The notes under the pieces were generated by a model. It had not been told where the DNA came from, did no database searches, and saw only the letters and a list, made by a program, of their open reading frames with translations. DNA of 64,000 nucleotides from an uncultured Ruminococcus sp. (GTDB lineage Bacteria > Bacillota > Clostridia > Oscillospirales > Acutalibacteraceae), in the NCBI GenBank assembly GCA_902776975.1, contig CACYSI010000001.1, positions 26,661-90,660 of the forward strand, read 5' to 3'. Both the position numbers and the translations under genes were made by a program. Below, in pieces: positions 27,894 to 52,240 of the stretch. The number at the start of each line of letters is the position of its first letter. The stretch's first letter is position 1.

Positions 27894-27940
27894 TACAGCC
27901 GTAAGAACATATCTTAACAAGATCACATTACAAAAAAACA

Positions 27941-27979
27941 ACTGCCGCAGAGTTATCTTTTCGATAGCCCTGCGGCAGT
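27941..27979. terminator. Bidirectional Rho-independent terminator between convergent genes
   Basis: aaaaaaaca-actgccgcag...ctgcggcagt-attttta. Confidence 0.75.
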
Positions 27980-27991
27980 ATTTTTATTATT

Positions 27992-29392
27992 TTACATAAG
28001 CTCCTCGAGCTCGGCAAACTTCACCTTGCCGTACTCGTTGCGCGGTATTTTATCCACAACATATACCCTGAAGGCTGAGTTGTGCAGATTGGTCTTTGCG
28101 CTTATGAAGGGTATTATCTCATCCTTGATCCGCTCGTCAACGGTGAAGATGCTCATACGCTTATCGTCACCGGTACACACGCAGTCCGCGTCGGGATACT
28201 GCGACTTTAAGATGCGCTCGGTCTCGTCGAGGCTGACTCTCAGTCCAAACAGCTTCAAAAACCTGCCCTTGCGCCCGATGATATAGTAGTAGCCGTCGGC
28301 GTCTCGCTTCGCGATATCACCTGTATGATACTCACCGCAGAACTCATCGTCCTTTATAAGATCCTCTTTGCATACGGCGTAGCCCATAGTCACGTTGGGG
28401 CCTCTGTAGCCGAGCTCACCGGTCACACAGCCGTCCTCGCCCTGAGCCTCATCTATCAGAAACAGCTCTCCCTCGGGGATAGCCTTGCCGATGCTGCCGA
28501 TCTTATCTTCAGCCATTTTCGGGTCAAGAAACGCCATACGCGCGCTTGTCTCGCTGGTGCCGAAGGTCGCGCAAAAGCGCTTGCCGTTGTTCTTGCAGTA
28601 AGCGGCTGTCCACTTAAACATCTTATCGGTCAGCTTACCGCCGCCCTCTGCTAAGGTATACAGCTCGGGCAGCTCCATCCTGTCAAAGCCGATACGCCGC
28701 ATTATCTCATAGCTGAACGGCACGCCGCAAAAGCTCGTACCGCCGTTCTCTTTGATGAAGCTCCAAAAGTCGGGATCCATCAGATTAGCCTTGACCATAA
28801 GTACCGAAGCGCCTACTGCCAAATGGCTGTTGATTACGTTCAGGCCCATGGTATAGTTCATCGGGAGGTCGCATATGCCCTTCTCTTCTTCACGCCACTC
28901 AAAGACCTTGGCTACATTTCGCGCGTTAGCCTCAAGGTTACCGTATTTATGGCGCACGAGCTTAGGACTGCCCGTAGAGCCCGAGGTAGTGAGCAGCATA
29001 GAGAGCTTATCATTCAGCTCATAAGGCTTATGAGCCGTCTTTACCAGCGCGTAGCCGTAGGCTGAGTATATTTTTTCTCCGCCGAGCTCGTCGGACATCC
29101 GCTCGGGAGCCCAGTAGTAAGACGGCTGATACACCTCGTCAAGATTCGTTCTCAGACCGCTGTCGAGCTTAGCGCTCAGCAGCAGCGGGACCTGTTTATT
29201 GTTTTCAAAGGCAAGATAGCCTACGAGCGACCCCGCGCAGCTCTCGCACATACAAAAAACTACGCATCTGGGCAGAGCGAGCTCTTCAAAAGCGCGTACG
29301 GTATCGCATACGTCGCGGTAGCTCAGCTCATATCCCGAGTCGTCCTTTATCGCTGTCTTATCCTGATTATGCTTATCTAAATCTAAAAACAC
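27992..29392 (-). CDS. Adenylate-forming enzyme (AMP-dependent synthetase/ligase, DltA-like acyl/aminoacyl-carrier-protein ligase)
   Basis: LLTTSGSTGSPKLV AMP-binding motif, YHTGD and GRKGRFLKLFGLRV core motifs. GTG start at 29392. Last gene of the polysaccharide locus. Confidence 0.8.
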   Translation of the reverse strand: MFLDLDKHNQDKTAIKDDSGYELSYRDVCDTVRAFEELALPRCVVFCMCESCAGSLVGYLAFENNKQVPLLLSAKLDSGLRTNLDEVYQPSYYWAPERMSDELGGEKIYSAYGYALVKTAHKPYELNDKLSMLLTTSGSTGSPKLVRHKYGNLEANARNVAKVFEWREEEKGICDLPMNYTMGLNVINSHLAVGASVLMVKANLMDPDFWSFIKENGGTSFCGVPFSYEIMRRIGFDRMELPELYTLAEGGGKLTDKMFKWTAAYCKNNGKRFCATFGTSETSARMAFLDPKMAEDKIGSIGKAIPEGELFLIDEAQGEDGCVTGELGYRGPNVTMGYAVCKEDLIKDDEFCGEYHTGDIAKRDADGYYYIIGRKGRFLKLFGLRVSLDETERILKSQYPDADCVCTGDDKRMSIFTVDERIKDEIIPFISAKTNLHNSAFRVYVVDKIPRNEYGKVKFAELEELM

Positions 29393-29427: not shown

Positions 29428-30603
29428 TTACTTTTTGAACATTCGCATGAGCTTGCGCGGTATCCGCGTGAGCTTCTGCTTTTTAAGTATCTTATGTCTG
29501 CTGCTCAGATACATCCTATCCGCCGTGTCCCAGTCGCTCCTGCGCAGCTCTTCAAAGAACGCCTGTCTGTTATCGGGCATTTTATGATGACCCTCTGCAG
29601 GCTCTTTTACAAGGCTGTTCTTCTCGATGGCATATATCGCGTCGCTCATGACATACTTGACACGACCCTTTATCTTTTCAAACAGGCGTTTACCCTGTTC
29701 GGTGTTTACCAAAATCAATGACACGCCGTCCTTAGGCTTAAAGTCGCCGTGATGCTTTTCAACGCCCCAGTAGTCGCCTATAGTCATGTCCGACGCCCTG
29801 TACAAGCTCTTGTAATTACAGCCGTAACAGGACTTTCTCCATGATATCCTCGATTTCGAACAAAAAGCGAAGTAAAAGCTGTTTTCAAGGTAGTTCTCGT
29901 AGTGCTTTACGCCGTTTATATAGTAGGTGCAGCACACTCCCGAACCGTTTTTCTCTTTATCTCTGAACTGAAAACGCAGATTTTTTCTGCCCTCTTTGTC
30001 AGTCAGCGTCTCAAGGTATCTCTGAAAAGCGTACGGGCTCGGAGCGCCGCCGCATAAGATATCTACCGTAAACAGATTCTCATGATCCTTTTTCAGATAC
30101 TTTCTCAGACCCGCTGTCTGGCACGGCAGACCGGTATACAAAACGGTCCTGCCCTCCTCAAGATCCTTTTTGACAAGAGGATAGCTGAGCGACGAGTCAC
30201 TCCATACATACTTAGAGCCGTGCACGGGCGCGATCTGCTCCAATGCGTCAAATCTCTGTATAAAAGCGTTGTAATCATCATCATAGTTACAGGCATATAC
30301 AGCGCCGCCCTCAGAGAGGATACTGTCGGCAAGAGCATAGAACAATCCGCCCGATGTGCTGACTCTCAGCACATCCTTATCGTTTACCTGAGCGGCATAG
30401 CACTGAGAGGGCTTGTTGAAGCTCTCAAAGCCGAGAGCGTGACACACCTTCATACACTGGCCGCATTTTATACATTTTTCATCGTTTATCTGAGGATACA
30501 AAAAACCGTCGGTCTGTTCGACCATGGTTATTGCGCCGACCGAACAAATATTCATACAGGCAGAGCAGCCCGTACATGATGTGGCAGGAAGTTGAATATT
30601 CAT
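29428..30603 (-). CDS. 2x[4Fe-4S] ferredoxin-domain plus FrhB-like (coenzyme F420 hydrogenase/dehydrogenase beta family) protein
   Basis: N-terminal CTGCSACMNIC and CIKCGQCMKVC clusters. The C-terminal region is collinear with the C-terminal half of 36718..38991. Confidence 0.7.
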   Translation of the reverse strand: MNIQLPATSCTGCSACMNICSVGAITMVEQTDGFLYPQINDEKCIKCGQCMKVCHALGFESFNKPSQCYAAQVNDKDVLRVSTSGGLFYALADSILSEGGAVYACNYDDDYNAFIQRFDALEQIAPVHGSKYVWSDSSLSYPLVKKDLEEGRTVLYTGLPCQTAGLRKYLKKDHENLFTVDILCGGAPSPYAFQRYLETLTDKEGRKNLRFQFRDKEKNGSGVCCTYYINGVKHYENYLENSFYFAFCSKSRISWRKSCYGCNYKSLYRASDMTIGDYWGVEKHHGDFKPKDGVSLILVNTEQGKRLFEKIKGRVKYVMSDAIYAIEKNSLVKEPAEGHHKMPDNRQAFFEELRRSDWDTADRMYLSSRHKILKKQKLTRIPRKLMRMFKK

Positions 30604-30680: not shown

Positions 30681-31445
30681 TCACATTATTGTACAGCCGT
30701 CTACCGCGAGTATCTGACCCGACACATACTCCGAGAGATCGGACAGCATGAACATACAGGCTCCCGCTATGTCCTCCGGCTCGGCGAGTCTGCCCATACA
30801 GATATTGTCGATACGGCTCTTGAGTTTTTCGGGATCGGCCTGCTGCATCATAGCGGTGTTTGTCAGACCGGGAGCTATCGCGTTGACCCTGATCTTCTTA
30901 TCGGCGAGCTCCTTAGCGGCTGACTTCGTCAGAGAGATGACCGCGCCCTTGGTAGCCGAGTAGATCATCTGACCGCGGTTGCCTCTGAGCGCCGTCATAG
31001 AGGCGATATTGACTATCGAGCCGCCTTTTTCCTGGCGACCCATGACGCGGCTGACTATCTCAAGCATATTAACGGTGCCGAAGACATTGACGTCAAACAT
31101 CATCTGCATATGCTTACGATCTATCATGCCGATCAGCTCATTGAACTCTACGCCGGCGTTGTTCACCAGACCGTCTATGTGACCGCACGCCTTCTTGACC
31201 TGCATCACGGCAGTCTTTACCTGCTGAACGTCTGTGATATCAAAGTAAAGCGGACGTACCTCGCCCGACGCGCTCTCATTCACGCTGCCGCACCATTCTT
31301 CGACAGCGCCCTCGCGCACGTCGTTGGCATATACTACAGCGCCGTTCCCGACAAAAAGCTCAGCCATAGCCTGACCTATGCCTCTGCCTGCTCCGGTCAC
31401 GATAACCACTTTGTTTTCCAACAGATTGTTATTCATCTCGCTCAT
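30681..31445 (-). CDS. SDR-family oxidoreductase (FabG-like 3-oxoacyl reductase)
   Basis: TGAGRGIG cofactor motif, NNAG, S...YSATK catalytic pattern. Confidence 0.85.
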   Translation of the reverse strand: MSEMNNNLLENKVVIVTGAGRGIGQAMAELFVGNGAVVYANDVREGAVEEWCGSVNESASGEVRPLYFDITDVQQVKTAVMQVKKACGHIDGLVNNAGVEFNELIGMIDRKHMQMMFDVNVFGTVNMLEIVSRVMGRQEKGGSIVNIASMTALRGNRGQMIYSATKGAVISLTKSAAKELADKKIRVNAIAPGLTNTAMMQQADPEKLKSRIDNICMGRLAEPEDIAGACMFMLSDLSEYVSGQILAVDGCTIM

Positions 31446-31454: not shown

Positions 31455-32867
31455 TTATCTGTCCCAGACGACATTTATCTCCGTGACCTTTTCTTCTTCG
31501 GGCTGCGCGTACTTTTTCTTCAGGAACTCAGGTCCCACCTGAGGGAAGAGCACACAGCTGAGCACATCCTCATCGCTTCTCGCGATATCACCGTAGCTCT
31601 CTCTGTCCCGCTCCAGCTCAGGCTCGAGCAGATCGGCGGGTCGGCATCGGATGACCTCATCGTCGCCTATAGCCTTTTTGCGGACGTCCTCGTTGACCTT
31701 GCCCGGCAGACATCCGTATTCTCCTCTGAGCAAGCCCTTTGACTCTTTGGTAAAGGTACCGTAACGCTCGCCGAACAGAACGTTCAGCACAGCCTGAGTA
31801 CCCACGATCTGGCTTGTGGGAGTGACTAACGGAGGATAGCCGAAGTCCTCGCGCACTCCGGGCACTTCCCTGAGAACATCCTCTAACTTATCGTCGGCGT
31901 CAGCCTCATGGAGCTGCGACATCAGATTCGACAGCATACCGCCCGGCACCTGATACAGCAGGGTATTGGGGTCGGTACGCAGCACCTTGGGATTGAGTAT
32001 GCCTTCATCCTGCAGGCGCTGAGCGACGTTTCTGAAGTGCTTAGCCGCCTTGTTCAGCTTTTTCGGATCCAGCCCGGTATCACGGGGAGTTCCCCTGAAC
32101 GCCGCGACCATAGACTCGGTGGCAGGCTGAGCGGTGCCGTCGGCGAACGGCGACAGAGCGCAGTCTATGATATCTACGCCCGCCATAGCCGCCGCCATAT
32201 ATACCATAGCGCCGGTACCGGTAGTATTATGTGTATGCAGGTGGACGGGCACGCTCACCCTGTCCTTGATCTTCTTTATCAGTGTATAAGCGTTATCTGG
32301 CAGCAGGATATTAGCCATATCCTTGATACAGATAGTATCCGCGCCCATGTTTTCGAGCTTTGCCGCAAGCTCGACAAAGTAGTCGTCGCTGTGTACCGGG
32401 CTTGTGGTATAGCTGATAGCCGCCTCACAGTGAGCGCCGTACTTCTTCACGCTCTCCATAGCCGCCTGCATATTGCGCACATCGTTGAGAGCGTCAAATA
32501 TCCTGACGATGTCTATACCGTTCTCTATTGATTTTTTGCAGAATTCATCTACGACGTCATCTGCGTAGTGACGGTAGCCGAGCAGGTTCTGACCTCTCAG
32601 CAGCATCTGTAACCTTGTGTCCGGCAGAGCTCTCCTCAGCGCTCTGAGCCTGTCCCACGGATCCTCATCAAGAAACCGCATACAGGCGTCAAAGGTAGCG
32701 CCGCCCCAACACTCGAGCGACCAGTAGCCCGCCTCGTTGAGAGCCTCACAGGCAGGCAGCATATCCTCAAGGCGCATACGCGTAGCAGCCTGCGACTGAT
32801 GAGCGTCGCGCAGGATAGTGTCGGTTATATACAGCTTTTGCGCCGGAAAATTCAGCTTGTTCTCCAT
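31455..32867 (-). CDS. Carboxyltransferase 5S-type subunit (oxaloacetate decarboxylase alpha / transcarboxylase 5S family), without its own biotinyl domain
   Basis: LYITDTILRDAHQSQAATRM, HLHTHNTTG (HMGL-like TIM barrel) and a conserved C-terminal region. Ends without an AMKM motif. Confidence 0.85.
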   Translation of the reverse strand: MENKLNFPAQKLYITDTILRDAHQSQAATRMRLEDMLPACEALNEAGYWSLECWGGATFDACMRFLDEDPWDRLRALRRALPDTRLQMLLRGQNLLGYRHYADDVVDEFCKKSIENGIDIVRIFDALNDVRNMQAAMESVKKYGAHCEAAISYTTSPVHSDDYFVELAAKLENMGADTICIKDMANILLPDNAYTLIKKIKDRVSVPVHLHTHNTTGTGAMVYMAAAMAGVDIIDCALSPFADGTAQPATESMVAAFRGTPRDTGLDPKKLNKAAKHFRNVAQRLQDEGILNPKVLRTDPNTLLYQVPGGMLSNLMSQLHEADADDKLEDVLREVPGVREDFGYPPLVTPTSQIVGTQAVLNVLFGERYGTFTKESKGLLRGEYGCLPGKVNEDVRKKAIGDDEVIRCRPADLLEPELERDRESYGDIARSDEDVLSCVLFPQVGPEFLKKKYAQPEEEKVTEINVVWDR

Positions 32868-32880
32868 AGTTACCGCCTTA

Positions 32881-33258
32881 TCAGCCGATCGTAAACAGTA
32901 TCTCGCCGCCCGCGACAGTCTGTCCTTCGGCTACGCGCAGCTCGGACAGCACTCCGTCTTTCGCGGCAGTTATCTCATTTTCCATTTTCATAGCCTCAAG
33001 CACCAGTATGGGCTGACCCTTGCTGACCTTATCGCCCTGAGCCGCCATAAGCTGCACGATCGTGCCCGGCATAGGGCTGACTACCGTACCGTCCGCCGAC
33101 GCGCTATCAGCCTGTACGGGGGCTTTCTGCGCCGCGGGAGTCTCTGTGCTGCGAACAGCGGGCACAGCTTCGGTCTTTATCGGGGCGGAGCCTTCTTCGA
33201 TCAGCTCGACCTCCATCTCATAAACCTCTGAGTTGAGGGTGATTCTGTATTTACTCAT
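32881..33258 (-). CDS. Biotin carboxyl carrier protein (1.3S-like, ~125 aa)
   Basis: C-terminal LVLEAMKMENEI biotinylation motif. The MSKYRITLN start at 33258 is chosen so the gene abuts the upstream stop at 33263. Confidence 0.85.
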   Translation of the reverse strand: MSKYRITLNSEVYEMEVELIEEGSAPIKTEAVPAVRSTETPAAQKAPVQADSASADGTVVSPMPGTIVQLMAAQGDKVSKGQPILVLEAMKMENEITAAKDGVLSELRVAEGQTVAGGEILFTIG

Positions 33259-33262
33259 TAGA

Positions 33263-33448
33263 TCAGTCTCCCAGTTGATATTTTTTGTAAGCGATACCGC
33301 GCTCTTCGATATACTCTTCAAGAGCGCTCTTTCCTATCTTCCTGAAGGATCTCACTCTGATGTTTTTGATATCGGCGCCGCTCTCCTCAGCGATCGCGGC
33401 TATCGCCATTGCGACTATCGCTTCATCGTTCAGTTTCAATGCGGACAC
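33263..33448 (-). CDS. Small (61 aa) OadG/MmdE-like accessory subunit, hypothetical
   Basis: DEAIVAMAIAAIAEE resembles the conserved C-terminal motif of small decarboxylase subunits, but there is no TM helix. It sits tightly between the 12S-like and BCCP genes. Confidence 0.45.
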   Translation of the reverse strand: MSALKLNDEAIVAMAIAAIAEESGADIKNIRVRSFRKIGKSALEEYIEERGIAYKKYQLGD

Positions 33449-33453
33449 CTCCG

Positions 33454-35004
33454 TTACAGCGGGATATTGCCGTGCTTTTTGAAGGGTCTGTTCTGCTTTT
33501 TGTTTTCAAGCATCCTTAAAGCGGATACGACCCTGATTTTTGTTTCTTCGGGCAGTATTACCTCGTCGACATAGCCGTGCTCGGCGGCTATATACGGGTT
33601 CATAAATTTTTCGTTATATTCGTTTATCAGTTCTTCGCGCTTAGCCGAGGAATCCTCAGCGGCGTCGATGGCTCTCCTGCCGATGATCGCGACAGCGCCC
33701 GAGGCGCCCATTACCGCTATCTCGGCGATAGGCCACGCAAATACCACGTCGGCGCCGATGCCCTTGCTGTTCATCGCGATATACGCGCCGCCGTAAGCCT
33801 TTCGCATTATTACCGAGATCTTCGGTACCGTAGCCTCAGAGTACGCGTACAGCATCTTAGCGCCGTGGCGTATTATACCGCCGTGCTCCTGCTGACTGCC
33901 GGGCAGGAACGCCGGTACGTCCACTAAGGTGAGCAGGGGTATATCAAAACAGTCGCAGAAGCGTATGAAGCGCGCTCCCTTGTCCGACGCGTTTATCTCA
34001 AGCGAGCCTGCCATATAGTTGCTCTGATTCGCGACAAGACCCACGGTCTTGCCCTCGATACGAGCGAAGCCTACCACTATGTTCTTTGCAAATGTTGCCT
34101 GTACCTCCATGAAAGAGCCTTCATCTATGAAGGTATCTATGACGTCTCTCACATCATAGCCCTTTTTAGAGTCCGCGGGCACTATCTCAGGCAGCTGTAA
34201 GCAGCGGTCTACCGATCTTCCGCTTACGGTCAGGCTCTCATCCTCGTTGCTCTGAGGCAGATAACCCAGCAGCCTTCTCACGCCGTTGAGACAGCTCAGA
34301 TCATCGGGATATACAAAGTGAGCCACACCCGACACACTGCCGTGTACCTCAGCGCCGCCCAGCTCGGCGGCTGTTATGACCTCACCGGTAACGGATTTTA
34401 CTACCGAGGGTCCTGTGATGTACATCTGACTGTTCTCTTCTGTCATGAAGATATAATCACAAATAGCCGGCGAGTAACAGGCTCCGCCGGCACAAGGGCC
34501 GAGTATTACCGATATCTGCGGGATAACGCCCGAAGCTATGGTGTTGCGGTAAAAAATGTCAGCGTAACCCGCGAGGCTGTCGATACCCTCTTCGATTCGC
34601 GCGCCGCCGCTGTCGTTTACGGATATGAACGGCGCCTTCATCTCGAGCGCCATATCCATGACGCGGCATATCTTCATAGCGTGAGCCTCTCCGAGAGAGC
34701 CGCCGCCTACCGTGAAATCCTGCGACGCGGCATACGCTAACCTGCCGTGGATATATCCGTAGCCGGTCACTACTCCGTCGCCGGGGCGCTTCTTTTTATC
34801 CATGCCGAAATCCGTGCAGCGCGACGCTATAAGGTCGTTCACCTCGACAAAGGTATTGTCGTCAAACAGCGCCTCAAGCCTCTCCCTCGCGGTCAGCTTG
34901 CCCTTTTCATGCTGTTTGTCGATCCTCGCCTTGCCGCCGCCCTCACGCGCCGATTTGCGCCTTTCATTCAACTTTTCGGTTTTTTCTTTCCATATATTGT
35001 CCAT
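33454..35004 (-). CDS. Acyl-CoA carboxyltransferase, 12S / propionyl-CoA carboxylase beta / MmdA family
   Basis: 516 aa starting MDNIWKEKTEKLNERR...KLTARERL. Two crotonase-like CT halves. Its ATG overlaps the flippase stop by 1 nt (TAATG at 35002-35006). Confidence 0.88.
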   Translation of the reverse strand: MDNIWKEKTEKLNERRKSAREGGGKARIDKQHEKGKLTARERLEALFDDNTFVEVNDLIASRCTDFGMDKKKRPGDGVVTGYGYIHGRLAYAASQDFTVGGGSLGEAHAMKICRVMDMALEMKAPFISVNDSGGARIEEGIDSLAGYADIFYRNTIASGVIPQISVILGPCAGGACYSPAICDYIFMTEENSQMYITGPSVVKSVTGEVITAAELGGAEVHGSVSGVAHFVYPDDLSCLNGVRRLLGYLPQSNEDESLTVSGRSVDRCLQLPEIVPADSKKGYDVRDVIDTFIDEGSFMEVQATFAKNIVVGFARIEGKTVGLVANQSNYMAGSLEINASDKGARFIRFCDCFDIPLLTLVDVPAFLPGSQQEHGGIIRHGAKMLYAYSEATVPKISVIMRKAYGGAYIAMNSKGIGADVVFAWPIAEIAVMGASGAVAIIGRRAIDAAEDSSAKREELINEYNEKFMNPYIAAEHGYVDEVILPEETKIRVVSALRMLENKKQNRPFKKHGNIPL

Positions 35005-36560
35005 TATGATTTTACCTCGGGTCTCTTTCTCTTTCCCCTTAAAAAACGCTTTTGCAAAAAGCCTTTGGCGCGCTTTAACGCGAACCTCATATCCTTGCGG
35101 TAGAATATCAGCGATGAGACCAGCCATACGATGATACCGTACAGGCTTACCGCGATCGCTGCGCCGAGCCATTTCAGCCAGCTGTCTATCGTGATATTCT
35201 GTACTATCAGTAATGCCGGTACACAAATCAGAGCCATATTGAACAAAGCCCATATCGACTTTAATATGAATACTCTTTTGCCTCTCCTGACGATATTTTT
35301 ATCTATATAAAACGCGTACTGATATGAACGGTAAACATTGGCGACAAACGTACCCACCGCAACGCCTACTATTCCGATAAACTGTACAAGTACGACGGAT
35401 ATCACTATATTCAAAACAGCCTCGATTATAGCGGCTGCCTTAGTCTCTTTATATTGACCCGCGCCCTGCACCAGACACAGATAAGGTGTTCTGATCGACT
35501 GAAAGGCGAACGCCATCGTGATGACAACGGCATATACCGGCAGGATATACTCCACATCGTGTACGCCCTTGGTATACAGAGCGATAAACGGCAGCAGCAT
35601 GACCATAGCTATAGAGAAGACCACCGACGCGAACGAGTATATCGCGTACTCATAAAAGCCCAGAAAGCTCTTGATCTTGTCCTTTTCTCCCTTAGCCCAC
35701 ATATCGCCGAATATCGGCTCGGTACCTGTCGTCATGATGGACTGTATCTTTTTGAGCGCGTTCATGACCAGATTATATACGGTATATACAGAAACCGTCT
35801 TTACATCGGTGAATACAGTCAGAACTATGATATCGGTATTATCATGTACGATGTTTGCGAGGGCGTGAGCCATAGCGTCGCCTCGTCTGTTCAGCGCGCT
35901 CTTGTCAGGCTCGATATTCTTTATCAGCTTATACTTTTTGTGTACATATATATACTGCATGAGCGGTCTGAGTACAAATACCACCGCGCTGCCCAGCTTG
36001 ACTATCTGGATGCTGAAGCCCATATGGATCAGCACCGCGGAGAGAACGGTATTCAATATGATCGAGATCGTCATGAAGATATTTGAGATATATACGCTCT
36101 GATCGGCAAGCAAGAAGGTACGATATGTAACACCGAAGAAGAATTCGGCAAAGGCGCTGGCGCCGAGGATGAGTATCAGTATAAATACATCAAAGTAATC
36201 AAAGCCGGTATGTATGACCAGGGGATATATCAGAGCGATACCGATGATATACGCCAGCAGTACAAGACCGACCCTGCGCATATAGTTATTGGTAGCGCGT
36301 ACTATAGCGCTGGTTTTTCTGAGATCCTTGGCTGCGAGAGATTGATACAGAGCTACTCTTGTAGAGGCGGTCACGCCCAACGTCAAAAGCGAGATAAGCG
36401 TGAGAAACTGTGTGACCGACGAAACGATGCCGTTGTATGCCGAGCCGAAATGCGACAGTATCAGTCGCGGCAGTATCAGCGCGCATACCATCGCCACCAC
36501 CTCATAGAGCGCGGAGGTCGCGATATTCAATGTCGCTTTTGTCGTTCTTGATCTTGCCAT
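35004..36560 (-). CDS. wzx: Oligosaccharide flippase (MOP/Wzx family polysaccharide biosynthesis protein)
   Basis: 518-aa protein with about 12-14 TM segments and an N-terminus typical of Wzx-type flippases. Confidence 0.8.
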   Translation of the reverse strand: MARSRTTKATLNIATSALYEVVAMVCALILPRLILSHFGSAYNGIVSSVTQFLTLISLLTLGVTASTRVALYQSLAAKDLRKTSAIVRATNNYMRRVGLVLLAYIIGIALIYPLVIHTGFDYFDVFILILILGASAFAEFFFGVTYRTFLLADQSVYISNIFMTISIILNTVLSAVLIHMGFSIQIVKLGSAVVFVLRPLMQYIYVHKKYKLIKNIEPDKSALNRRGDAMAHALANIVHDNTDIIVLTVFTDVKTVSVYTVYNLVMNALKKIQSIMTTGTEPIFGDMWAKGEKDKIKSFLGFYEYAIYSFASVVFSIAMVMLLPFIALYTKGVHDVEYILPVYAVVITMAFAFQSIRTPYLCLVQGAGQYKETKAAAIIEAVLNIVISVVLVQFIGIVGVAVGTFVANVYRSYQYAFYIDKNIVRRGKRVFILKSIWALFNMALICVPALLIVQNITIDSWLKWLGAAIAVSLYGIIVWLVSSLIFYRKDMRFALKRAKGFLQKRFLRGKRKRPEVKS

Positions 36561-36717: not shown

Positions 36718-38991
36718 TTAAAGCCTTTTTATGAGCCACGCCGCTTTGGGATGAGTATACATCATCCTCATCTTAGGGGTGATCGTATCCGAAAGATAGT
36801 CGATAAAGCTCATTTCATCCGAGTATTCTTTCATCCTTATGCCGCAAGGAGCCGAAGGTCTGAACAGATGCGCGTAGGCAGTAAAATCGCCGTTGAAGCG
36901 TTCCGATTCAAAGAATCCCGAAAGCTTGTCTTTAAACGACCTTGCCTTGTCTGTATTGAGCATCACCATGGAGATACCCTTGAGTCGCTCAGACTGCAAA
37001 GCCGGGATCTTTTTCTCAAGCCCCCAAAAATCACCCAGAGTTATATCCGAGCAGCGCTCCATGCGCGCAAACTCACAGTTATAACACGAGCTTCTGTAAA
37101 ACATCCGATACTTATACGACATAACATACAGATCCTTATCGGTAAGCTCGCTCTCTCCGTTTTCATATTTCAGTGAAATCAAGCGATAAGACCTCTTGCC
37201 CGGCGTATCCGTCTTGTTTCTGAACGAATATGATGTGACCGGACTGTTCTTTTTCTCTCCTAAGCCTTTGATATATTTGCTGAAATACAGCGGATTGGAT
37301 ACGCCGTGACAGATAAAGTCTACGGTGAGCAGATACTCGCTGTCGCCGGTCACGGCTCTCAGACCCGCTACCTGACACGGAGTACCCGAAAACAGCACGT
37401 GCTGCTTATTTTTGATACGTTCTTTTATCTCGTCAAAAATACCTTCGACATTACTCTGAAGATACTTTGATCTGCACATATCGGAGATCACGTTCTTATC
37501 CTGAGTTCCGGTATGTATAACATAAAACTCGTTGTTATATACAGCTCCGTATACCCAAGCGTCGGGGTATTCCTTAGTATACGCGTCCGCTATAGCGCCG
37601 AACGCTCCGCCCGAGGTGCTCTGCCATCTTTTATCTTTATCGGAGTGCCAACCGTAGTATACCTCCGAGTTTTGTGACTCTGATCTTAAGCTGAGGGTTT
37701 TCTCACAGGTCCTTGCGCATTTATTGCAGTGTATACATTTTTCTTCGTCTATTTCGGGATAGACAAAGCCGTTTTCGGCTACCATGCCGATCGCGTTTAC
37801 GGGACAGTTGGCGGAGCAGGCTGTACAGCCTCTGCAATCTGAGCTGTGCCCCGTATCAAAGTATGATTTCTTTACCGGGTTTTTAAATATTTCACCCGAG
37901 CATATCTGCTTGATATATTCGAGCGATGAGGCTCTCTCAGCCTCCAAACGTTCTTTGACCTGCAGATAATCGATCTTTTCATTCAACTTCGATATCTCTT
38001 CTGTCGTTTTGATCTGTCTGTCTGTCAGATCGAGCTTGTTCAAAAGATTCAACGCTCTCGAGTTCGTAGCTGAGAGTTGAACAGAAATAAACTGCTTCTC
38101 AAATAATATCGAGAAAGCCATACCGTGAAACGAATTGGTTATCACCGCGTCGGCGTATTTGATATATGAGAGGAACTCTTCTACTCCGGCAGAACAGACA
38201 GTCTCTACACCGCTGTAATTATCCGCCATCAAACCTGTATAGATCACCTTACAGTTGTGTTCGGCGGCATATCTTCTACCCATTTCTATCAATCGGGTAT
38301 CGGGTCTGAGCATATATATGAACACATAAGGAGAGCTTTCTATCCGCTCGGCGGCTATCTCAGACCATCTCTCCTTATCAAACAGCAAAGTCGGGTCGAG
38401 ATCGCAGCGTACAGGAGCAGACAAATAGGATCTGAGAAGATCGACGCTCTGCTGCTCTCTGAAAGAAATGCTGCTGAAACCCCTGAGAGCTCTGTGATAA
38501 TTGTCCTTTTGCGCGTCGCTGAGCTCGGTCAGGCTCGCGCTTGCCGCATAGCTAACTCTCTTTACATCATCAGAAAGACCCGGCCACTTAAAGGTATACC
38601 AGTCTGCGTTAGGTCCCGTGATAAGAGTCCATATCTGGTCGCTTCCCGCCAGCAAAACATCCGAGTCTTTGACTTCACGGGCTGCTTCACGAGCCGAACC
38701 GACTTCAAGCACAGAAAGTCGATCATTGATAAAGCGTCTGATCTTTTTTTCTTTTTCGCTGAAGCGTCCTTCCTGCAAAAGCATTTTCAGCTTGACTGAA
38801 CTGGTATAATTCTTTCCCGGTTTTAATGCCTTCAAATACTTCTTTACTTTTGCTTTTTGCCCTGTAGGCCTATTCTTCATTTTAACTATTACCGGCTCAG
38901 CTGAGTTGTCTTTGAGTACACTTTGCAGAGCATATGCCTGCAAAACCGAGCCGTAATTGTTTATCAAATAAGTTACAGTTAGAATACGCAT
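36718..38991 (-). CDS. Fusion protein: polysaccharide pyruvyl transferase-family domain + 2x[4Fe-4S] + FrhB-like domain
   Basis: The N-terminus NNYGSVLQAYALQ matches 39027..40103. Mid-region CRGCTACSANCP and CIHCNKCARTCE. The C-terminal half is collinear with 29428..30603. Confidence 0.75.
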   Translation of the reverse strand: MRILTVTYLINNYGSVLQAYALQSVLKDNSAEPVIVKMKNRPTGQKAKVKKYLKALKPGKNYTSSVKLKMLLQEGRFSEKEKKIRRFINDRLSVLEVGSAREAAREVKDSDVLLAGSDQIWTLITGPNADWYTFKWPGLSDDVKRVSYAASASLTELSDAQKDNYHRALRGFSSISFREQQSVDLLRSYLSAPVRCDLDPTLLFDKERWSEIAAERIESSPYVFIYMLRPDTRLIEMGRRYAAEHNCKVIYTGLMADNYSGVETVCSAGVEEFLSYIKYADAVITNSFHGMAFSILFEKQFISVQLSATNSRALNLLNKLDLTDRQIKTTEEISKLNEKIDYLQVKERLEAERASSLEYIKQICSGEIFKNPVKKSYFDTGHSSDCRGCTACSANCPVNAIGMVAENGFVYPEIDEEKCIHCNKCARTCEKTLSLRSESQNSEVYYGWHSDKDKRWQSTSGGAFGAIADAYTKEYPDAWVYGAVYNNEFYVIHTGTQDKNVISDMCRSKYLQSNVEGIFDEIKERIKNKQHVLFSGTPCQVAGLRAVTGDSEYLLTVDFICHGVSNPLYFSKYIKGLGEKKNSPVTSYSFRNKTDTPGKRSYRLISLKYENGESELTDKDLYVMSYKYRMFYRSSCYNCEFARMERCSDITLGDFWGLEKKIPALQSERLKGISMVMLNTDKARSFKDKLSGFFESERFNGDFTAYAHLFRPSAPCGIRMKEYSDEMSFIDYLSDTITPKMRMMYTHPKAAWLIKRL

Positions 38992-39026
38992 ATCTACTAC
39001 ACCAATATATCAAAAAAGCTTTTGTT

Positions 39027-40103
39027 TCAGCTCATTTTTTCCTTTATCAAAGATATATAGCTCTCGCCGATACTTCTCAGGCTTTCGGTAGCCTGAAAAG
39101 AGAAGGAGGTATCGAGCTCTCTGCCGTCCGCCGCGTTCGGATCGTCTATGATCCTCGCCTTGAGCTCATCCGAGCTCAGCAGATCGGTGATCCTTTCAGG
39201 CGCTTTCGGAGGGAGGACGCTATAGAACTGCTTTTTTAATATCAACGAAAACGCGGTACCGTGGAACGAGTCGCACAGTACATATTCCGCGTTCGCGATA
39301 AGCTCAACGTATTTCTCGGGAGAAGCGTCCCTGATTATCTTATCGGCATTTGCCGACAATCTGCCGATCTTGGTTACTATGTACAGCTTGCAGTTCTTTT
39401 CATGAGCCAGCCTCTGAGCCGCCTTCAACAGGGTATCCGAGCCGAAGAGAGCGTATACAAATATATATTTCTCATCTGCTTTTTTCGAGATATTGAGGCT
39501 CTTTTTCCATTCCTCTCCCGTCAGAAGAAAGACCGGATCGGGTATGGTCCGACCGTCGATATCTATCTCGCTCTTTATCTTATCGGCTACCGCCTTTTCT
39601 CTGAAAGACAGAAGATCAAAGCTGCCGAGCTGTTCCTTATAAACGTCCTTGTACTCCTCAAGATACTTTCCCATACTCGCGGCGTAGGATATCTTCGGTT
39701 TGCCGCCCGTAACAAAGTCGAGAAAATACGCGGTATCGCCGCCGGTCAGTTCAAGGTTGAAAACCTGATCGCTGCCGGTGATGAAAGCGTCGTATACTTT
39801 ATTTGCCTGAGCGATAGTTGCTTTAGTATACGGCTTGCTGTGAGGGATCCTCTCTCTGAAAGGAGCAAACGCCTTCAGCCTCGGCCTGTTAAGTGTGTTG
39901 CGTATTATATTCTTCAAGTTGCCTATCAAGCCGTATTTTATATCGAGTTTTCTGGGTTGATGCATCTTCTCGATAGCGTCACATTTATAATCTATACATT
40001 CACATTCGATGTTCTCGGATGTCAGCTTTTTTTGCAGCGCGTAAGCCTGTAGAACGGCGCCGTAGTTATTCGCGCTGAAAAAGGTCATTATTCCTGCTTT
40101 CAT
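39027..40103 (-). CDS. Polysaccharide pyruvyl transferase family protein
   Basis: MKAGIMTFFSANNYGAVLQAYALQ N-terminus and C-terminal ...DSFHGTAFSLI motif typical of the family. Confidence 0.75.
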   Translation of the reverse strand: MKAGIMTFFSANNYGAVLQAYALQKKLTSENIECECIDYKCDAIEKMHQPRKLDIKYGLIGNLKNIIRNTLNRPRLKAFAPFRERIPHSKPYTKATIAQANKVYDAFITGSDQVFNLELTGGDTAYFLDFVTGGKPKISYAASMGKYLEEYKDVYKEQLGSFDLLSFREKAVADKIKSEIDIDGRTIPDPVFLLTGEEWKKSLNISKKADEKYIFVYALFGSDTLLKAAQRLAHEKNCKLYIVTKIGRLSANADKIIRDASPEKYVELIANAEYVLCDSFHGTAFSLILKKQFYSVLPPKAPERITDLLSSDELKARIIDDPNAADGRELDTSFSFQATESLRSIGESYISLIKEKMS

Positions 40104-41392
40104 ACATATTCCCTTTCATTAACGCCCAAGAGAGCTATACCTATAAAGTAGGTCACGACAAAGACATAGTCATACAGCGGATTTCCGCTGAAGCAATAGG
40201 TTATAAAGAATAGCTGTATATACATAGATAAGCGCAGAGCCAAAGCAGCGTTTGAATCTCGGTTCTCGGCGTTGATCCTTATAAACCGTCTGATCGTATA
40301 CACCAGCATCCATATTACGGTTATCAAAAACGCCGACAAGCCTACTATACCTGTCTCGCACAAAAGCTGAAGATAAACATTATGAGTCTCATAGGTACTT
40401 GTGCTCGTGGCTCTGTATACATGCAGCGATTGTTCTCTGAAATTACCCCAGCCTATACCTAAAATAGGGTGCTGCCTAAACAGGCGCAGCGCCAGATCAT
40501 AAAGCTCTGTCCTGCCTGAAAGCGTGCCGTCGTCATCGGCGAACTTATCCATGATGTTGGTCACAGATTGCCTTACGAGCGGTATGCTCATATACATAGC
40601 GAACAGCACACTTATTATGATAAGTATACTGATCGTAACTAACAGAACACGGTTCAATCTCAGCTTTATCTTGCCCTCCGACTGTCTGGCGACCAAAAAG
40701 ACGACCAGCAGCGATATGGCTATATCCAATATGAAACCGCGCTTATTGATGAGTATTATACTCAGCGCCATAACTGACAGCATGATCCAGAAATACGCTT
40801 TTTTCTTTTTATTTCTGTAGCTCACCAAAAAAGCAAACAAGCCGGGCACAAGAAAGCATCCGGTGATTCCCGCATATGTGAATAAACCGTTGCTAAGTAT
40901 TCCCGTTTTGCTTGCGAGCCTTCCGGCTGCGCTGCTCGTATACAATAAAGGAGCTATCACTCTTGAAATGATATGGGTAGTAGAATCCAAAACTACCGAA
41001 ACAGCGGTAATGATACCGAGCCTTCGCACTATCTTACATACCATATCAAAAGAAACATTCCGTCTGCACGCGGTATAGCAGATCAGCCATGAGCTGAAGC
41101 TGACCGCAAAATCCATAAAGAATACTTTTTTATTGGATCTAAACGACAGTATCAGGGTCACTCCGTAAAATATCAGCCACACGAGCAGAATACTCTGATA
41201 CAGCTTTCCGAAGCAGATAAGAGCTATCAACGCGGCAGCTCCGAGCAGTATCAAAGGGAACTGTGCAAAAGCGGCCGCCGTAAATCTGATCTGTAGCCAC
41301 ATGGAATAAAGAAAAGGCCATATTACCAGCACGCCGATCAAAAGTTGTCTGAGATTAAGTTTTCCCTGTTGTCTGTGAATCGTCAGTCTCAT
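40100..41392 (-). CDS. wzy: O-antigen polymerase/ligase-family membrane protein (Wzy-like)
   Basis: 430-aa polytopic protein with a large loop containing ...GRTELYD...HPILGIGWGNF.....HN.YLQ. 4-nt overlaps on both sides. Confidence 0.7.
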   Translation of the reverse strand: MRLTIHRQQGKLNLRQLLIGVLVIWPFLYSMWLQIRFTAAAFAQFPLILLGAAALIALICFGKLYQSILLVWLIFYGVTLILSFRSNKKVFFMDFAVSFSSWLICYTACRRNVSFDMVCKIVRRLGIITAVSVVLDSTTHIISRVIAPLLYTSSAAGRLASKTGILSNGLFTYAGITGCFLVPGLFAFLVSYRNKKKKAYFWIMLSVMALSIILINKRGFILDIAISLLVVFLVARQSEGKIKLRLNRVLLVTISILIIISVLFAMYMSIPLVRQSVTNIMDKFADDDGTLSGRTELYDLALRLFRQHPILGIGWGNFREQSLHVYRATSTSTYETHNVYLQLLCETGIVGLSAFLITVIWMLVYTIRRFIRINAENRDSNAALALRLSMYIQLFFITYCFSGNPLYDYVFVVTYFIGIALLGVNEREYV

Positions 41393-42534
41393 TGATTTAT
41401 CCTCGTTACCTGCTGATAGATATCTGTCAGTTGTTTTGATACCGCCTGCTCGCTGAAGCGCTCATTAGCGTAAGCCGCTATCCATTCGCTGTCATAACGG
41501 CTGCGGTCATTATACATTTCAAGCATAGCGGTCTTGAGAGTCTCTGTATCATTATGATCCACGAGCTTCTCAAGTCTTTCGTCGTTATTATCCTGCGCCA
41601 GAGGCAAAGATGACGACACTATGACCGGCTTGCCGGACATCCACGCCTCGATTATCGGGACGCAGAAGGTCTCATAAACGCTGTAGCATATCAAAGCGTC
41701 GGCTGACGCCATGACCTCAGCCATTTTCTCTCTCGGCACGGTACCGAGCAGCTTTACCTTGTCGTAGGCGCCCGCATCGGCTACGAGCCTGCTCAGCTTG
41801 TCAAAGTCGCTTCCGCCGCCGGCAACGGTCAGCACGGCGTCGGTCTTTTCACCGAACACCTCAATAAAGGCAGAGATGACCTTGTCAAACTGCTTTATCG
41901 GTATCACTCTGCCTACACAAATAAAATTAAAGCCCTTATGAGGCTCGCTCTTTACAGAAAAAGCCGAGCTCACAAAGTTAGGTATGACATGGATGTCGCG
42001 CTTTGTGCCCGTCAGCTCTCTGACGGATCTCTCAAGACCCGAGCTGACACAGATCAGCGCGTCGGATTTTTTGCTGAAATCTCTCAGATTCTCAGAGTGC
42101 GCGCCGTCGATCTGCTTCTCCATGACCTGCGACCAATGCTCGGTCGCGACTATCCTGACACCCTTCTTCTGAAAAGGCTCAAAGGCGTCATACATCCAGA
42201 GCGTCGGATAATGGATGTGTATCACATCGGGCATACCGTATTTTTTCACCATATTATCGGCGAGCTTGCGAAAGCGCTTGACCGCCATTCGCATCGACGC
42301 GGCACGATCCATAAATCTTCCGAGAGGCAGATTGAAAGAGGCGGTCTTGACCGGGCTCGCGAAAGAGTACCGGTAACCTAAGCCCTTGAGATCCCTGACC
42401 GAGAGTACATTCACGCTGAAATAGCAGACGTCCATACCTGCTCGCGCAAGCAGCTGAGCTTGTTCAAACTCAAAGCTTCCCATCAGATTATTCTGTTTAC
42501 TGGGCATCGCTCTGCCTACTACCCATACTCGCAT
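41389..42534 (-). CDS. Glycosyltransferase family 4 (GT-B)
   Basis: C-terminal E(x7)E-type region (...YETFCVPIIEAWMSGKPVI...). Typical GT4 length. Confidence 0.8.
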   Translation of the reverse strand: MRVWVVGRAMPSKQNNLMGSFEFEQAQLLARAGMDVCYFSVNVLSVRDLKGLGYRYSFASPVKTASFNLPLGRFMDRAASMRMAVKRFRKLADNMVKKYGMPDVIHIHYPTLWMYDAFEPFQKKGVRIVATEHWSQVMEKQIDGAHSENLRDFSKKSDALICVSSGLERSVRELTGTKRDIHVIPNFVSSAFSVKSEPHKGFNFICVGRVIPIKQFDKVISAFIEVFGEKTDAVLTVAGGGSDFDKLSRLVADAGAYDKVKLLGTVPREKMAEVMASADALICYSVYETFCVPIIEAWMSGKPVIVSSSLPLAQDNNDERLEKLVDHNDTETLKTAMLEMYNDRSRYDSEWIAAYANERFSEQAVSKQLTDIYQQVTRINQ

Positions 42535-42617: not shown

Positions 42618-42860
42618 TCAGTCAAAATCCACGCCGTATCTCTTGAGTATCTCTATACCGTTAAGATACGAGCCGTAGTGCAGTATATCATCAGCGTCAA
42701 ACAGCACGTCAAAGCTGTCCTCCAGCTCAGATATAAGAGAAAGATGCGCTACCGAATCCCAAACGGGCACATCTTTAAATGTAAAGTTCTCACCGAGTAC
42801 ATCCTCGCTTACGCCGAAGGTATCGGTAAACGCCTTGTTATACTTTTCTAAGTTAGTCAT
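42618..42860 (-). CDS. Acyl/aminoacyl carrier protein (DltC-like type)
   Basis: 80 aa, with the phosphopantetheine-attachment motif VWDSVAHLSLI. Confidence 0.75.
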   Translation of the reverse strand: MTNLEKYNKAFTDTFGVSEDVLGENFTFKDVPVWDSVAHLSLISELEDSFDVLFDADDILHYGSYLNGIEILKRYGVDFD

Positions 42861-42874
42861 CGTTATTCCCTCAA

Positions 42875-43093
42875 TTATTCCATCTCGGCGAGGATATCGC
42901 CTACTGTCTTGAAGCCCTTGATAACGTCGCCGGTCAGCTTTTTGCCGAACTCGTCGTCCATCATCACTATCAGTGAGAGCTTTGCCATCGAGTCGTACTC
43001 GTCTACATCGTCAAGTACGGTATCAGCTGTAAGTGTGCCCTCGTCAAGGTCGAGTGTCTCTTCGATCAGAGCGATCTTTTCCTTTTCTGTCAT
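42875..43093 (-). CDS. Acyl carrier protein (copy A of a tandem duplicate)
   Basis: 72 aa from MTEKEKIALIEE with a GGAGGA RBS 8 nt upstream. EYDSMAKLSLI Ser motif. Confidence 0.8.
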   Translation of the reverse strand: MTEKEKIALIEETLDLDEGTLTADTVLDDVDEYDSMAKLSLIVMMDDEFGKKLTGDVIKGFKTVGDILAEME

Positions 43094-43114
43094 TGTTATT
43101 TCCTCCGTTTTCAT

Positions 43115-43298
43115 TTAATATATTAAGATTTCCCAAGGGAGCTTTCAGCGCAGCGTACCGGGTTTTCGTGCTGCGTTGAGCTCGACCGTATAAAACGGGA
43201 TGTATCCCGCGTCTGTCCCGACCGTTCTTGCGGTCAGGCAGCTTGCATTGCGCTTTTATACTAACAAAAAGCGATAAAAGATTGATTTGAAATCCGTA
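43115..43298. repeat. Repeat-element insertion between the duplicated ACP genes
   Basis: ggagctttcagcgcagcg...ttttatactaa...tttgaaat resembles the flank and both termini of the 154-bp element (63380-63557) with the interior missing. Confidence 0.55.
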
Positions 43299-43517
43299 TT
43301 ACTCCATTTCGGCGAGGATATCGCCTACGGTCTTGAAGCCCTTGATAACGTCGCCGGTCAGCTTCTTGCCGAACTCGTCGTCCATCATCACTATCAGTGA
43401 GAGCTTAGCCATCGAGTCGTACTCGTCTACGTCGTCAAGTACGGTATCAGCGGTAAGTGTGCCCTCGTCGAGGTCGAGTGTTTCTTCGATCAGTGCGATC
43501 TTTTCCTGTTCTGTCAT
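43299..43517 (-). CDS. Acyl carrier protein (copy B of a tandem duplicate)
   Basis: 72 aa from MTEQEKIALIEE. The protein differs from copy A at essentially one residue in the supplied translations. Confidence 0.8.
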   Translation of the reverse strand: MTEQEKIALIEETLDLDEGTLTADTVLDDVDEYDSMAKLSLIVMMDDEFGKKLTGDVIKGFKTVGDILAEME

Positions 43518-43553
43518 AGCTTTTATTCCTTTCATTATCAGATTATATATTAT

Positions 43554-44609: not shown

Positions 44610-44623
44610 GTTTTTCCCTTTCG

Positions 44624-45388: not shown

Positions 45389-45399
45389 AAATATCCCCC

Positions 45400-46488: not shown

Positions 46489-46559
46489 TTTTCTATCCTC
46501 CGTATCTATTTTTTCATCGTTCGGGGATCCATTCCCTGAAAACATATGTATATTAAACA

Positions 46560-46649
46560 GTCATTGCGAGGGCTCGACACGCGTGTCAGCCCGCGGCAAT
46601 CTCAATCGAAAAGCAGGTCAAGACCTTTAAGCGCTTACGCGGGATCAGT
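46560..46649. repeat. Intergenic repeat with extended GACACGCGTGTC palindrome
   Basis: gggctcGACACGCGTGTCagccc (core 46576-46587), then aggtcaagacct, which is related to the ggtcttgacc hairpin core. Confidence 0.75.
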
Positions 46650-48855: not shown

Positions 48856-48856
48856 A

Positions 48857-49543: not shown

Positions 49544-49563
49544 AACTACCTCTTTTCGGGTAC

Positions 49564-50073: not shown

Positions 50074-50078
50074 ACTCC

Positions 50079-50777: not shown

Positions 50778-50811
50778 TCCGCGGACCCTCCCTTTTTATT
50801 TTATCGATCCC

Positions 50812-50870: not shown

Positions 50871-50962
50871 AGTGCGCTACTGAGCGGGGACTATAAATAT
50901 TTTTTTATTTCAGATGTTGCCGCAATAATACAGTTTGTATAATTTATCTTTGTAAACAAACA

Positions 50963-52239: not shown

Positions 52240-52240
52240 A

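Follow-up and report, generated by a model that had tools for sequence, protein, structure and literature searches.

A transcarboxylase-type biotin enzyme set in a Wzx/Wzy polysaccharide operon of an uncultured Ruminococcus sp. as a putative source of malonyl-CoA

A 64-kb stretch of DNA from an uncultured Ruminococcus sp. (contig CACYSI010000001.1; the whole stretch is called the window, and all coordinates are window positions unless a locus is named) carries four genes packed in a row on the minus strand that encode a 12S-type acyl-CoA carboxyltransferase, a 61-aa protein, a biotin carboxyl carrier protein (BCCP) as well as a 5S-type carboxyltransferase. They lie inside a polysaccharide operon that also encodes an acyl module resembling a fatty-acid synthase. 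With a 12S subunit, a 5S subunit whose catalytic motifs are intact and a free carrier, and with no biotin carboxylase, pump or membrane anchor, the set is most simply read as an ATP-independent transcarboxylase. Moreover, malonyl-CoA is supported as its product because the same set closes the fatty-acid synthesis (fab) operon in sister species and because FabD is its constant neighbour. The reading that we favour, with moderate confidence, is that the set would be a soluble, ATP-independent, biotin-dependent transcarboxylase making malonyl-CoA for the operon's acyl module.

Gene content of the carboxyltransferase set

The 12S-type acyl-CoA carboxyltransferase (33454-35004, minus strand; 516 aa) matches Carboxyl_trans PF01039 with 619 bits over model positions 1-493 of 493, and scores 784 bits against TIGR01117 mmdA, under the model cutoff of 999; its matches in the PDB include 1VRG (654 bits) and the Propionibacterium freudenreichii 12S subunit 1ON3 (620 bits). 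It is followed by a GTG-initiated gene for a conserved small soluble protein whose fold is without known relative (33263-33448, minus strand; 61 aa) and by the gene for a free, 1.3S-like BCCP (32881-33258, minus strand; 125 aa), which matches Biotin_lipoyl PF00364 with 78 bits, has the biotinylation motif AMKM within LEAMKMENEI and finds its top NCBIfam models among the small BCCP/MmdC-type families. The last gene encodes a 5S/OadA-type oxaloacetate-pyruvate carboxyltransferase (31455-32867, minus strand; 470 aa) with HMGL-like PF00682 and PYC_OADA PF02436 domains and no Biotin_lipoyl domain of its own. This protein scores 691 bits against PRK12331 (cutoff 718), and its alignment with 5KS8, 2NX9 and 1RQB shows LRDAHQS, KDMA (with its lysine) and HLHTH all conserved. 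Overall, mmdA and oadA are the top-scoring NCBIfam models, and every score lies under the equivalog cutoff.

These gene calls and hidden Markov model (HMM) searches agree with a first-pass annotation, made from the sequence letters, that had described four packed, co-oriented genes with the composition of a transcarboxylase. The start of the 12S gene is also as described there: its ATG (35004-35002) overlaps the stop codon of the upstream gene (35006-35004) in the sequence TAATG at 35002-35006, and a GAGG lies 9-13 nt upstream. A longer open reading frame (ORF) that extends to 35253 was rejected as the 12S gene because the homologues are 516 aa long.

The 61-aa protein is present between the 12S and BCCP genes in all classes of genomic context described below, with the consensus IVAMAVAAIAEE...LRVVSFRE...YKKYQLGD. 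It was compared with known families, and also with solved structures, as a candidate relative of OadG or MmdE, and the assignment was rejected: the protein has no Pfam or NCBIfam match even at E≤5, no OAD_gamma match at that threshold, no relative in the PDB and no hydrophobic segment.

A membrane anchor is absent from all four subunits. Further, among all ORFs of at least 350 aa in the 64-kb window there is no biotin carboxylase, AccA/AccD or OAD_beta, in line with the first-pass annotation, which had seen neither AccC nor the beta pump subunit in the set. The only ATP-grasp protein, encoded within the operon (51022-52239), was examined as a hidden biotin carboxylase and rejected because both end domains, Biotin_carb_N and Biotin_carb_C, are missing; its best matches are RimK/CPS-like ligases.

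Genomic contexts of homologous sets

Metagenome contigs from cattle rumen encode an identical 12S protein in an unchanged gene order. A genome scan additionally found a 96%-identical locus in a metagenome-assembled genome (MAG) of an uncultured Clostridia bacterium, and homologues of 73-82% identity both in rumen MAGs of Saccharofermentans-like bacteria and in two isolates, 'Ruminococcaceae bacterium' AB4001 and KHP2. Three contexts can be told apart among close homologues of the four-gene set: linked to polysaccharide genes (context A), standing alone among housekeeping genes (context B) and linked to fab genes (context C).

Context A comprises at least 12 distinct loci of rumen Clostridia, in which the set lies in glycan loci with orthologues of FabD, a metallo-beta-lactamase (MBL)-fold hydrolase, KAS III, a short-chain dehydrogenase/reductase (SDR) and acyl carrier protein (ACP), usually together with a second reductase (SDR2) and an adenylating ligase. 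These are loci L004 (MAG CAMHAH01), L007, L013, L017, L026, L033, L039 and L048, to which L084-L089 were added by exact look-up of the closest proteins. All five of the closest homologues that were looked up (80-100% identity) are in context A, and the closest homologues outside polysaccharide loci have 75-80% identity and belong to the same four-gene set. Neighbours and gene orders vary between the loci. For example, in L084 and L026 the set is flanked directly by the ACP genes on one side and by the genes for SDR2 and the AMP-ligase on the other, and in the window and L085 a cassette of glycosyltransferase (GT4), Wzy, pyruvyl-transferase and Wzx genes is inserted between the ACPs and 12S; L033 has a canonical Polysacc_synt_3 flippase 5′ of 12S, and in L086 and L087 genes for a phosphopantetheinyl transferase and an acyltransferase come after 5S. 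In L086 (13640-15189 of that locus) these are an ACPS and an Acyl_transf_3 O-acyltransferase, which stand in the place of SDR2 and the ligase, so that an ACP-activating enzyme can be part of the module itself.

In context B, the set of KHP2 has FtsY, S15 and NadE upstream and PNPase downstream, and the set of AB4001 is neighboured by rml genes and IspD. Context C is found in four species (L015, L018, L036 and L038), where fabH-fabK-fabD-fabG-fabF-fabZ is followed directly by 12S-small-BCCP-5S, in the usual place of accBCDA. In L036 (4489-13603), no gene for acetyl-CoA carboxylase (ACC) lies within 10 kb of the fab-linked set. The gene arrangement suggests that fatty-acid synthesis in the four fab-linked species depends on the transcarboxylase.

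Five more distant loci (L034, L035, L037, L040 and L042; three of them from Butyrivibrio MAGs) carry a lone 12S homologue right after fabD, with no BCCP or 5S gene adjoining, in a different, specialised lipid cluster of ketosynthase/chain-length-factor (KS/CLF)-like type, with FabG-like and FabZ-like genes and a protein of two KS domains. The only one of these with Pfam annotation, L040 (102-11542), also encodes PlsC-like acyltransferases, a patatin, an FMN reductase, an AMP-ligase and an ACP. The recurring partner of the 12S lineage is FabD, a consumer of malonyl-CoA.

Among the Pfam- or BLAST-annotated neighbours at about 20 loci there is no methylmalonyl-CoA mutase, epimerase, or propionate- or succinate-pathway gene. 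A Wood-Werkman context with mutase and epimerase was not encountered among the annotated neighbours in any context looked at, and no locus that was surveyed places an orthologous set in a setting of succinate or propionate fermentation. Pfam-annotated related loci likewise contain no OAD_beta and no biotin carboxylase.

One context A locus, L026 (4735-14669), comes from a MAG labelled Flexilinea (Chloroflexota). It has a contiguous FabD-MBL-KAS III-SDR-KAS III-ACP-ACP-12S-small-BCCP-SDR2-ligase module, most genes of which have 65-80% identity to the clostridial one; either the contig is mis-binned or the module was transferred across phyla. The L026 module is adjoined by a LicD gene and a phosphoenolpyruvate (PEP)-mutase fusion, which suggests phosphonate decoration.

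A putative route to malonyl-CoA

For the catalytic direction, the acceptor and the decoration chemistry, we infer the following route. The 5S subunit would take the beta-carboxyl group off oxaloacetate, release pyruvate and load the carboxyl group onto the biotin of the 125-aa carrier, and the 12S subunit would pass it to acetyl-CoA to form malonyl-CoA; the net conversion would be of oxaloacetate and acetyl-CoA to pyruvate and malonyl-CoA, without ATP. The 61-aa protein would, at a guess, be an accessory or assembly subunit. The product would feed the operon's own fatty-acid-synthase-like module, in which FabD would load malonyl onto the tandem ACPs, the KAS III enzymes would condense malonyl-ACP with a starter (which the adenylating ligase and ACP3 may provide), and the SDRs would reduce the condensation product. 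The NeuD/PglD-type transferase would then attach the short acyl group to a 4-amino sugar that the DegT aminotransferase produces.

Comparison with known systems

The methylmalonyl-CoA:pyruvate transcarboxylase of P. freudenreichii (12S/5S/1.3S, EC 2.1.3.1; 1ON3 and 1RQB) has the same three catalytic parts on separate polypeptides, and both it and, within the window, the set described here are without an ATP-grasp biotin carboxylase and a membrane subunit. Against this enzyme, the 12S protein scores 620 bits and the 5S protein 449 bits, with the catalytic motifs conserved. In contrast to the Propionibacterium enzyme, the window set has a further conserved component of 61 aa, its 5S protein is nearer to OadA and to the beta subunit of two-subunit pyruvate carboxylase, its context is fatty-acid or glycan acyl synthesis instead of the propionate cycle, and its acceptor would be acetyl-CoA instead of propionyl-CoA.

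The Na+-translocating decarboxylases (OadGAB, MmdABCDE and GcdABCD) have homologous carboxyltransferase and biotin-carrier components in common with the window set, which differs from them in having no beta pump, no membrane-anchored gamma or delta subunit and no biotin domain fused to its 5S protein; lacking both a beta subunit and a membrane anchor, it does not qualify as a Na+-pump decarboxylase. Nor would it be an ATP-dependent ACC, whether of the AccABCD type or a biotin carboxylase-BCCP protein with a carboxyltransferase, as the window contains no biotin carboxylase. Polyketide clusters carry dedicated acyl-CoA carboxylase genes that secure malonyl-CoA, such as jadJ/jadN of Streptomyces venezuelae, and these carboxylases are ATP-dependent (biotin carboxylase-BCCP plus carboxyltransferase). 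In the window, by contrast, the donor would be a 5S oxaloacetate carboxyltransferase and the consumer a glycan acyl module. A fused (methyl)malonyl-CoA:pyruvate transcarboxylase is present in anaerobic protists and has been proposed as an ATP-independent malonyl-CoA route for fatty-acid elongation in a passage of PMC7985675 that cites Jordan et al. 2003. The protist enzyme is one fused eukaryotic polypeptide without a glycan link, whereas the window set is bacterial and has four genes.

The window set most resembles a cluster of Clostridium (Acetivibrio) thermocellum, Clo1313_1523-1526 / Cthe_0699-0701, whose function is itself only proposed. That four-gene cluster also combines a carboxyl transferase with a small 'gamma' protein, a biotin carrier and an OadA-like protein (PMC5414155, PMC5887222, PMC3039559), and it is likened to the window set through these published descriptions, from which its orthology would follow. 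C. thermocellum is without a standard ACC, and a metabolic model of it recruits Clo1313_1523-1526, as a putative transcarboxylase, for malonyl-CoA (PMC5414155); elsewhere the cluster's annotation reads oxaloacetate decarboxylase, with a gamma subunit (PMC5887222). C. thermocellum is cellulolytic, and the window organism likewise encodes a dockerin protein and an H+-pyrophosphatase. The C. thermocellum cluster is discussed as central metabolism only, whereas the window set is embedded in a polysaccharide operon.

Weighing the alternatives

Several results weigh against the favoured reading. No second copy was found in the eight polysaccharide-linked genomes of the genome scan, which had a sensitivity of about 35%; the scan used six 8-mers (each match had exactly one, except L004 with four), and these are present in 42 of the 120 closest homologues. 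The 12S proteins of polysaccharide loci are monophyletic in 0 of 200 bootstraps (neighbour-joining, deep nodes unresolved) and interleave with stand-alone copies, and no column of the 12S alignment separates them from housekeeping copies. L026 is without a 5S gene, and the carboxyl donor is thus not always encoded in the module. The choice of acceptor is also poorly marked: the 12S protein has similar scores (590-650 bits) against the beta subunits of propionyl-CoA carboxylase (PCC), the Propionibacterium 12S subunit and an ACC beta subunit in the PDB, so overall similarity does not separate acetyl-CoA from propionyl-CoA specificity. In addition, the residue equivalent to PccB D422 / MePCC D407 was rejected as a specificity marker because it is Ile in clostridial and Bacteroidota-labelled homologues alike (all of the clostridial ones and all three of the latter, L052, L055 and L056); it is Asp in most other, mainly alphaproteobacterial, homologues.

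Part of this evidence bears on whether the set is an extra copy dedicated to the module or the cell's only source of malonyl-CoA, also serving fatty-acid synthesis, between which we find the balance about even. The missing second copies weigh little, given the sensitivity of the scan (likelihood ratio at most ~10), and the lack of 12S monophyly and of a diagnostic column is as compatible with a single copy that was relocated as with a paralogue. The 5S proteins of polysaccharide loci have nine diagnostic columns in common, including two indels, and split from the others in 101 of 200 bootstraps, which partially supports a separate 5S lineage in these loci. The GC content at third codon positions (GC3) of 12S and 5S is 0.65-0.66, which matches the conserved acyl-module genes (0.64-0.68) and differs from both core genes (0.71-0.74) and the variable cassette of the operon (0.52-0.59). 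Moreover, the module duplicates functions of fatty-acid synthesis initiation (FabD, KAS III, FabG-like SDRs and ACPs, with AcpS in L086 and L087), which makes a duplicated carboxylase plausible, and L026 together with the five lone-12S loci shows that 12S can occupy specialised clusters without 5S. The GC content of each set follows that of its host locus, which makes it unlikely that the set by itself was recently transferred horizontally. The first-pass annotation had proposed a locus-dedicated supply of malonyl- or methylmalonyl-CoA to the FabD/KAS III/ACP module: the link to the module, present in at least 12 loci, and malonyl-CoA are upheld, and 'locus-dedicated' is not, as the nearest homologues outside are housekeeping sets.

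One alternative, which we hold to be unlikely, is that the set is the organism's only, general-purpose cluster of the C. thermocellum type, acting in fatty-acid synthesis or in oxaloacetate/pyruvate metabolism, and that its position in the operon has no meaning for the polysaccharide. The nearest homologues outside polysaccharide loci, which are stand-alone housekeeping sets (KHP2 and AB4001) or fab-linked, agree with it, as do the interleaved 12S phylogeny, the second copy found in no genome, and an identity between the window and L004 that is 95-96% for the set and 82-86% for the adjacent Wzy and pyruvyl transferases. However, it has to contend with an association with the acyl module that persists in at least 12 loci despite rearranged neighbours, including cases where the set is sandwiched between module genes, as well as with the duplicated module functions, the 5S columns and indels, a codon usage like that of the module genes and unlike that of core genes, and the limited sensitivity of the scan. 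Distinctly improbable, in our assessment, is a 12S subunit that uses propionyl-CoA or another short acyl-CoA to make methylmalonyl-CoA or a substituted malonyl extender, or a classical methylmalonyl-CoA:pyruvate transcarboxylase. Such an enzyme would suit the best NCBIfam model, mmdA, the NCBI homologue name 'methylmalonyl-CoA carboxyltransferase', the bit score against the Propionibacterium 12S subunit and a rumen rich in propionate, where the operon's ligase could activate a short acid; yet the mmdA score is under the model cutoff, the annotated neighbours at about 20 loci include no mutase, epimerase or propionate-pathway gene, and the same set lies 3′ of fabZ in housekeeping fab operons. 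The partner FabD also argues for malonyl-CoA, as it is over the malonyltransferase equivalog cutoff (TIGR00128, 280.5 bits vs 260.9) and the APFH motif has a Phe, presumably as in malonyl-specific acyltransferases.

We consider it very unlikely that the set is a soluble remnant of an Oad or Mmd decarboxylase without a pump, or an ATP-dependent acyl-CoA carboxylase whose BCCP is loaded by a biotin carboxylase from another place in the genome. A futile decarboxylase beside FabD in a biosynthetic operon would make little sense, neither a beta subunit nor a biotin carboxylase is encoded in the window or in those related loci that have Pfam annotation, the small subunit has neither a transmembrane segment nor an OAD_gamma match, and the operon's ATP-grasp protein lacks the end domains of a biotin carboxylase. 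The decarboxylase annotation of the C. thermocellum cluster with its gamma subunit (PMC5887222, PMC8303734) favours this alternative, although C. thermocellum showed no detectable oxaloacetate decarboxylase activity, as discussed in a passage of PMC8303734. Two further observations on its side are that the 5S protein is nearer to Vibrio cholerae OadA and to the two-subunit pyruvate carboxylase beta subunit than to the Propionibacterium 5S subunit, and that 12S occurs without an adjacent 5S gene in L026, L034, L035, L037, L040 and L042.

Novelty and significance

A clostridial transcarboxylase that makes malonyl-CoA is not a new idea, as it was already assumed for Clo1313_1523-1526 (PMC5414155). 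The window set is a known enzyme architecture in a pathway context that we found undescribed: full-text literature searches returned no paper that ties a transcarboxylase to a capsule or exopolysaccharide locus, in keeping with the first-pass annotation, which knew of no such pathway. The comparative evidence suggests that the lineage may use transcarboxylation in place of ACC. Because the same enzyme type closes the fab operon of sister species, the set would be a lineage-typical malonyl-CoA source recruited to sugar decoration instead of a one-off oddity. If it makes malonyl-CoA from oxaloacetate, it would be an ATP-free alternative to ACC, which is supposed to catalyse the committed step of lipid synthesis in all bacteria. 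The position of the set at the end of fab operons and inside FabD/ACP modules makes the strongest genomic case to date for this idea, which otherwise exists only as a modelling assumption in C. thermocellum.

We tentatively extend this to a wider hypothesis: the Saccharofermentans-like rumen Clostridia might lack an ATP-dependent ACC and make all of their malonyl-CoA by transcarboxylation from oxaloacetate, and the sublineage with the 5S indels might be a dedicated second copy that travels from one polysaccharide locus to another with the FabD/KAS III/ACP glycan-acylation cassette, possibly as far as the Flexilinea MAG. If this were true, no glycan pathway with a carboxyl-transfer enzyme of its own would, to our knowledge, have been reported before, nor any genomic case of a bacterial transcarboxylase replacing ACC. 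For glycobiology, the predicted chemistry would mean that rumen Clostridia use a self-contained module that resembles a fatty-acid synthase, precursor supply included, to make the acylated polysaccharides of their surface; for metabolic engineering, the sets are compact, natural four-gene cassettes with a predicted activity of ATP-independent malonyl-CoA formation.

The surrounding polysaccharide operon

The ~28 kb Wzx/Wzy operon consists of about 29 genes with few gaps, running on the minus strand from 56106 to 27992. It begins, in transcription order, with Wzz, a CpsD-like kinase, a DegT aminotransferase, a PglC-like sugar-phosphate transferase (Bac_transf), the ATP-grasp ligase, an Asp/Glu racemase, a GNAT protein, a PIG-L deacetylase and the NeuD/PglD-type acyltransferase (48208-56106, minus strand); the PglD-like protein is over the TIGR03570 cutoff (172 bits vs 160.8). 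The acyl module follows with FabD, an MBL-fold hydrolase, KAS III (a), SDR1 and KAS III (b) in transcription order (43554-48202, minus strand; Pfam assignments), and catalytic residues are kept, namely Cys-His-Asn in both KAS III proteins and GFSLGE (Ser), Arg and His in FabD. Three small carrier proteins (42618-43535, minus strand), the tandem ACP1 and ACP2 and the ACP3, all have the DS(M/V) serine motif; ACP1 and ACP2 match PP-binding, and ACP3 (42618-42860) has the DS motif without a PP-binding HMM match. The last 71 residues of the tandem ACP1 and ACP2 (42875-43535) are identical, and in L004 there are three copies of this kind in addition to the ACP3 type.

Between the carrier proteins and the flippase position lies a variable cassette of GT4, Wzy, PS_pyruv_trans and a PS_pyruv_trans-FrhB fusion (36718-42534, minus strand; Pfam assignments), with a GC content of 0.46, a GC3 of 0.52-0.62 and an identity to L004 of 82-88%, compared with 95-96% for 12S and 5S. 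The next gene, whose stop codon overlaps the 12S start, encodes a protein of 518 aa with about 12 hydrophobic segments (35004-36560, minus strand) and no Pfam or NCBIfam HMM match. A 57%-identical homologue is named 'polysaccharide biosynthesis protein' at NCBI, and another homologue is named 'Na+-driven multidrug efflux pump'. The first-pass label of Wzx for this protein agrees with its hydrophobic segments and a homologue name and is not confirmed by any HMM, and the protein is probably a divergent flippase of the Wzx/MOP type. The family is large in the rumen (967 homologues, with no Pfam or NCBIfam match among the 120 listed) and looks like an unmodelled branch of MOP/Wzx-like transporters.

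Downstream of 5S, the operon continues with SDR2, a FabG-like reductase (30681-31445, minus strand; adh_short_C2), a FrhB-like 2x[4Fe-4S] protein (29428-30603, minus strand; FrhB_FdhB_C and Fer4) and, as its final gene, an adenylating AMP-binding ligase (27992-29392, minus strand; AMP-binding). SDR2 travels with the carboxylase set: its orthologues (70-95% identity) lie right after 5S in L004, L007, L048, L084, L085 and L088, and after BCCP in L026. The free FrhB-like gene goes with the pyruvyl transferases, as part of a variable pyruvylation cassette, and not with the carboxylase set; it adjoins PS_pyruv_trans genes in related loci and is absent from L084. One FrhB/FdhB-like 2x[4Fe-4S] domain is fused to a pyruvyl transferase (36718-38991) and a second copy is free (29428-30603), a pairing that hints at a redox step tied to pyruvylation. 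The ligase has sub-cutoff matches to acyl-CoA ligase and amino-acid adenylation models, and its orthologues (57-92% identity) occur in most of the related polysaccharide-linked loci.

After the ligase, a bidirectional intrinsic terminator (~27932-27990) separates convergent genes, with the stem ACTGCCGCAG...CTGCGGCAGT and an A-run and a T-run at its flanks; this end of the operon, with SDR, FrhB-like protein, ligase and terminator, is as first annotated. No convincing internal promoter and no intergenic terminator were found within the operon, and an Rfam scan of the whole window returned nothing. A sigma-70-like match 5′ of the Wzx-like gene (36593-36565) was rejected as a promoter because its -10 element sits only 4 nt from the ATG and the match contains the ribosome-binding site. 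We propose that the four-gene set would be co-transcribed with the polysaccharide operon.

Just upstream of the operon, a low-GC stretch (0.40) at 56100-59400 contains a zinc-ribbon ORF and a gene for a VapE-like primase/helicase (57893-59374); the stretch is probably what is left of a mobile element. Elsewhere, the window encodes AspRS and HisRS, together with a 921-aa dockerin-bearing protein (3022-5787) and a membrane H+-pyrophosphatase (10925-13024). The dockerin points to a fibre degrader of the cellulosome type, and the H+-pyrophosphatase may be read, by analogy, as a sign of pyrophosphate-linked energy metabolism like that of C. thermocellum.

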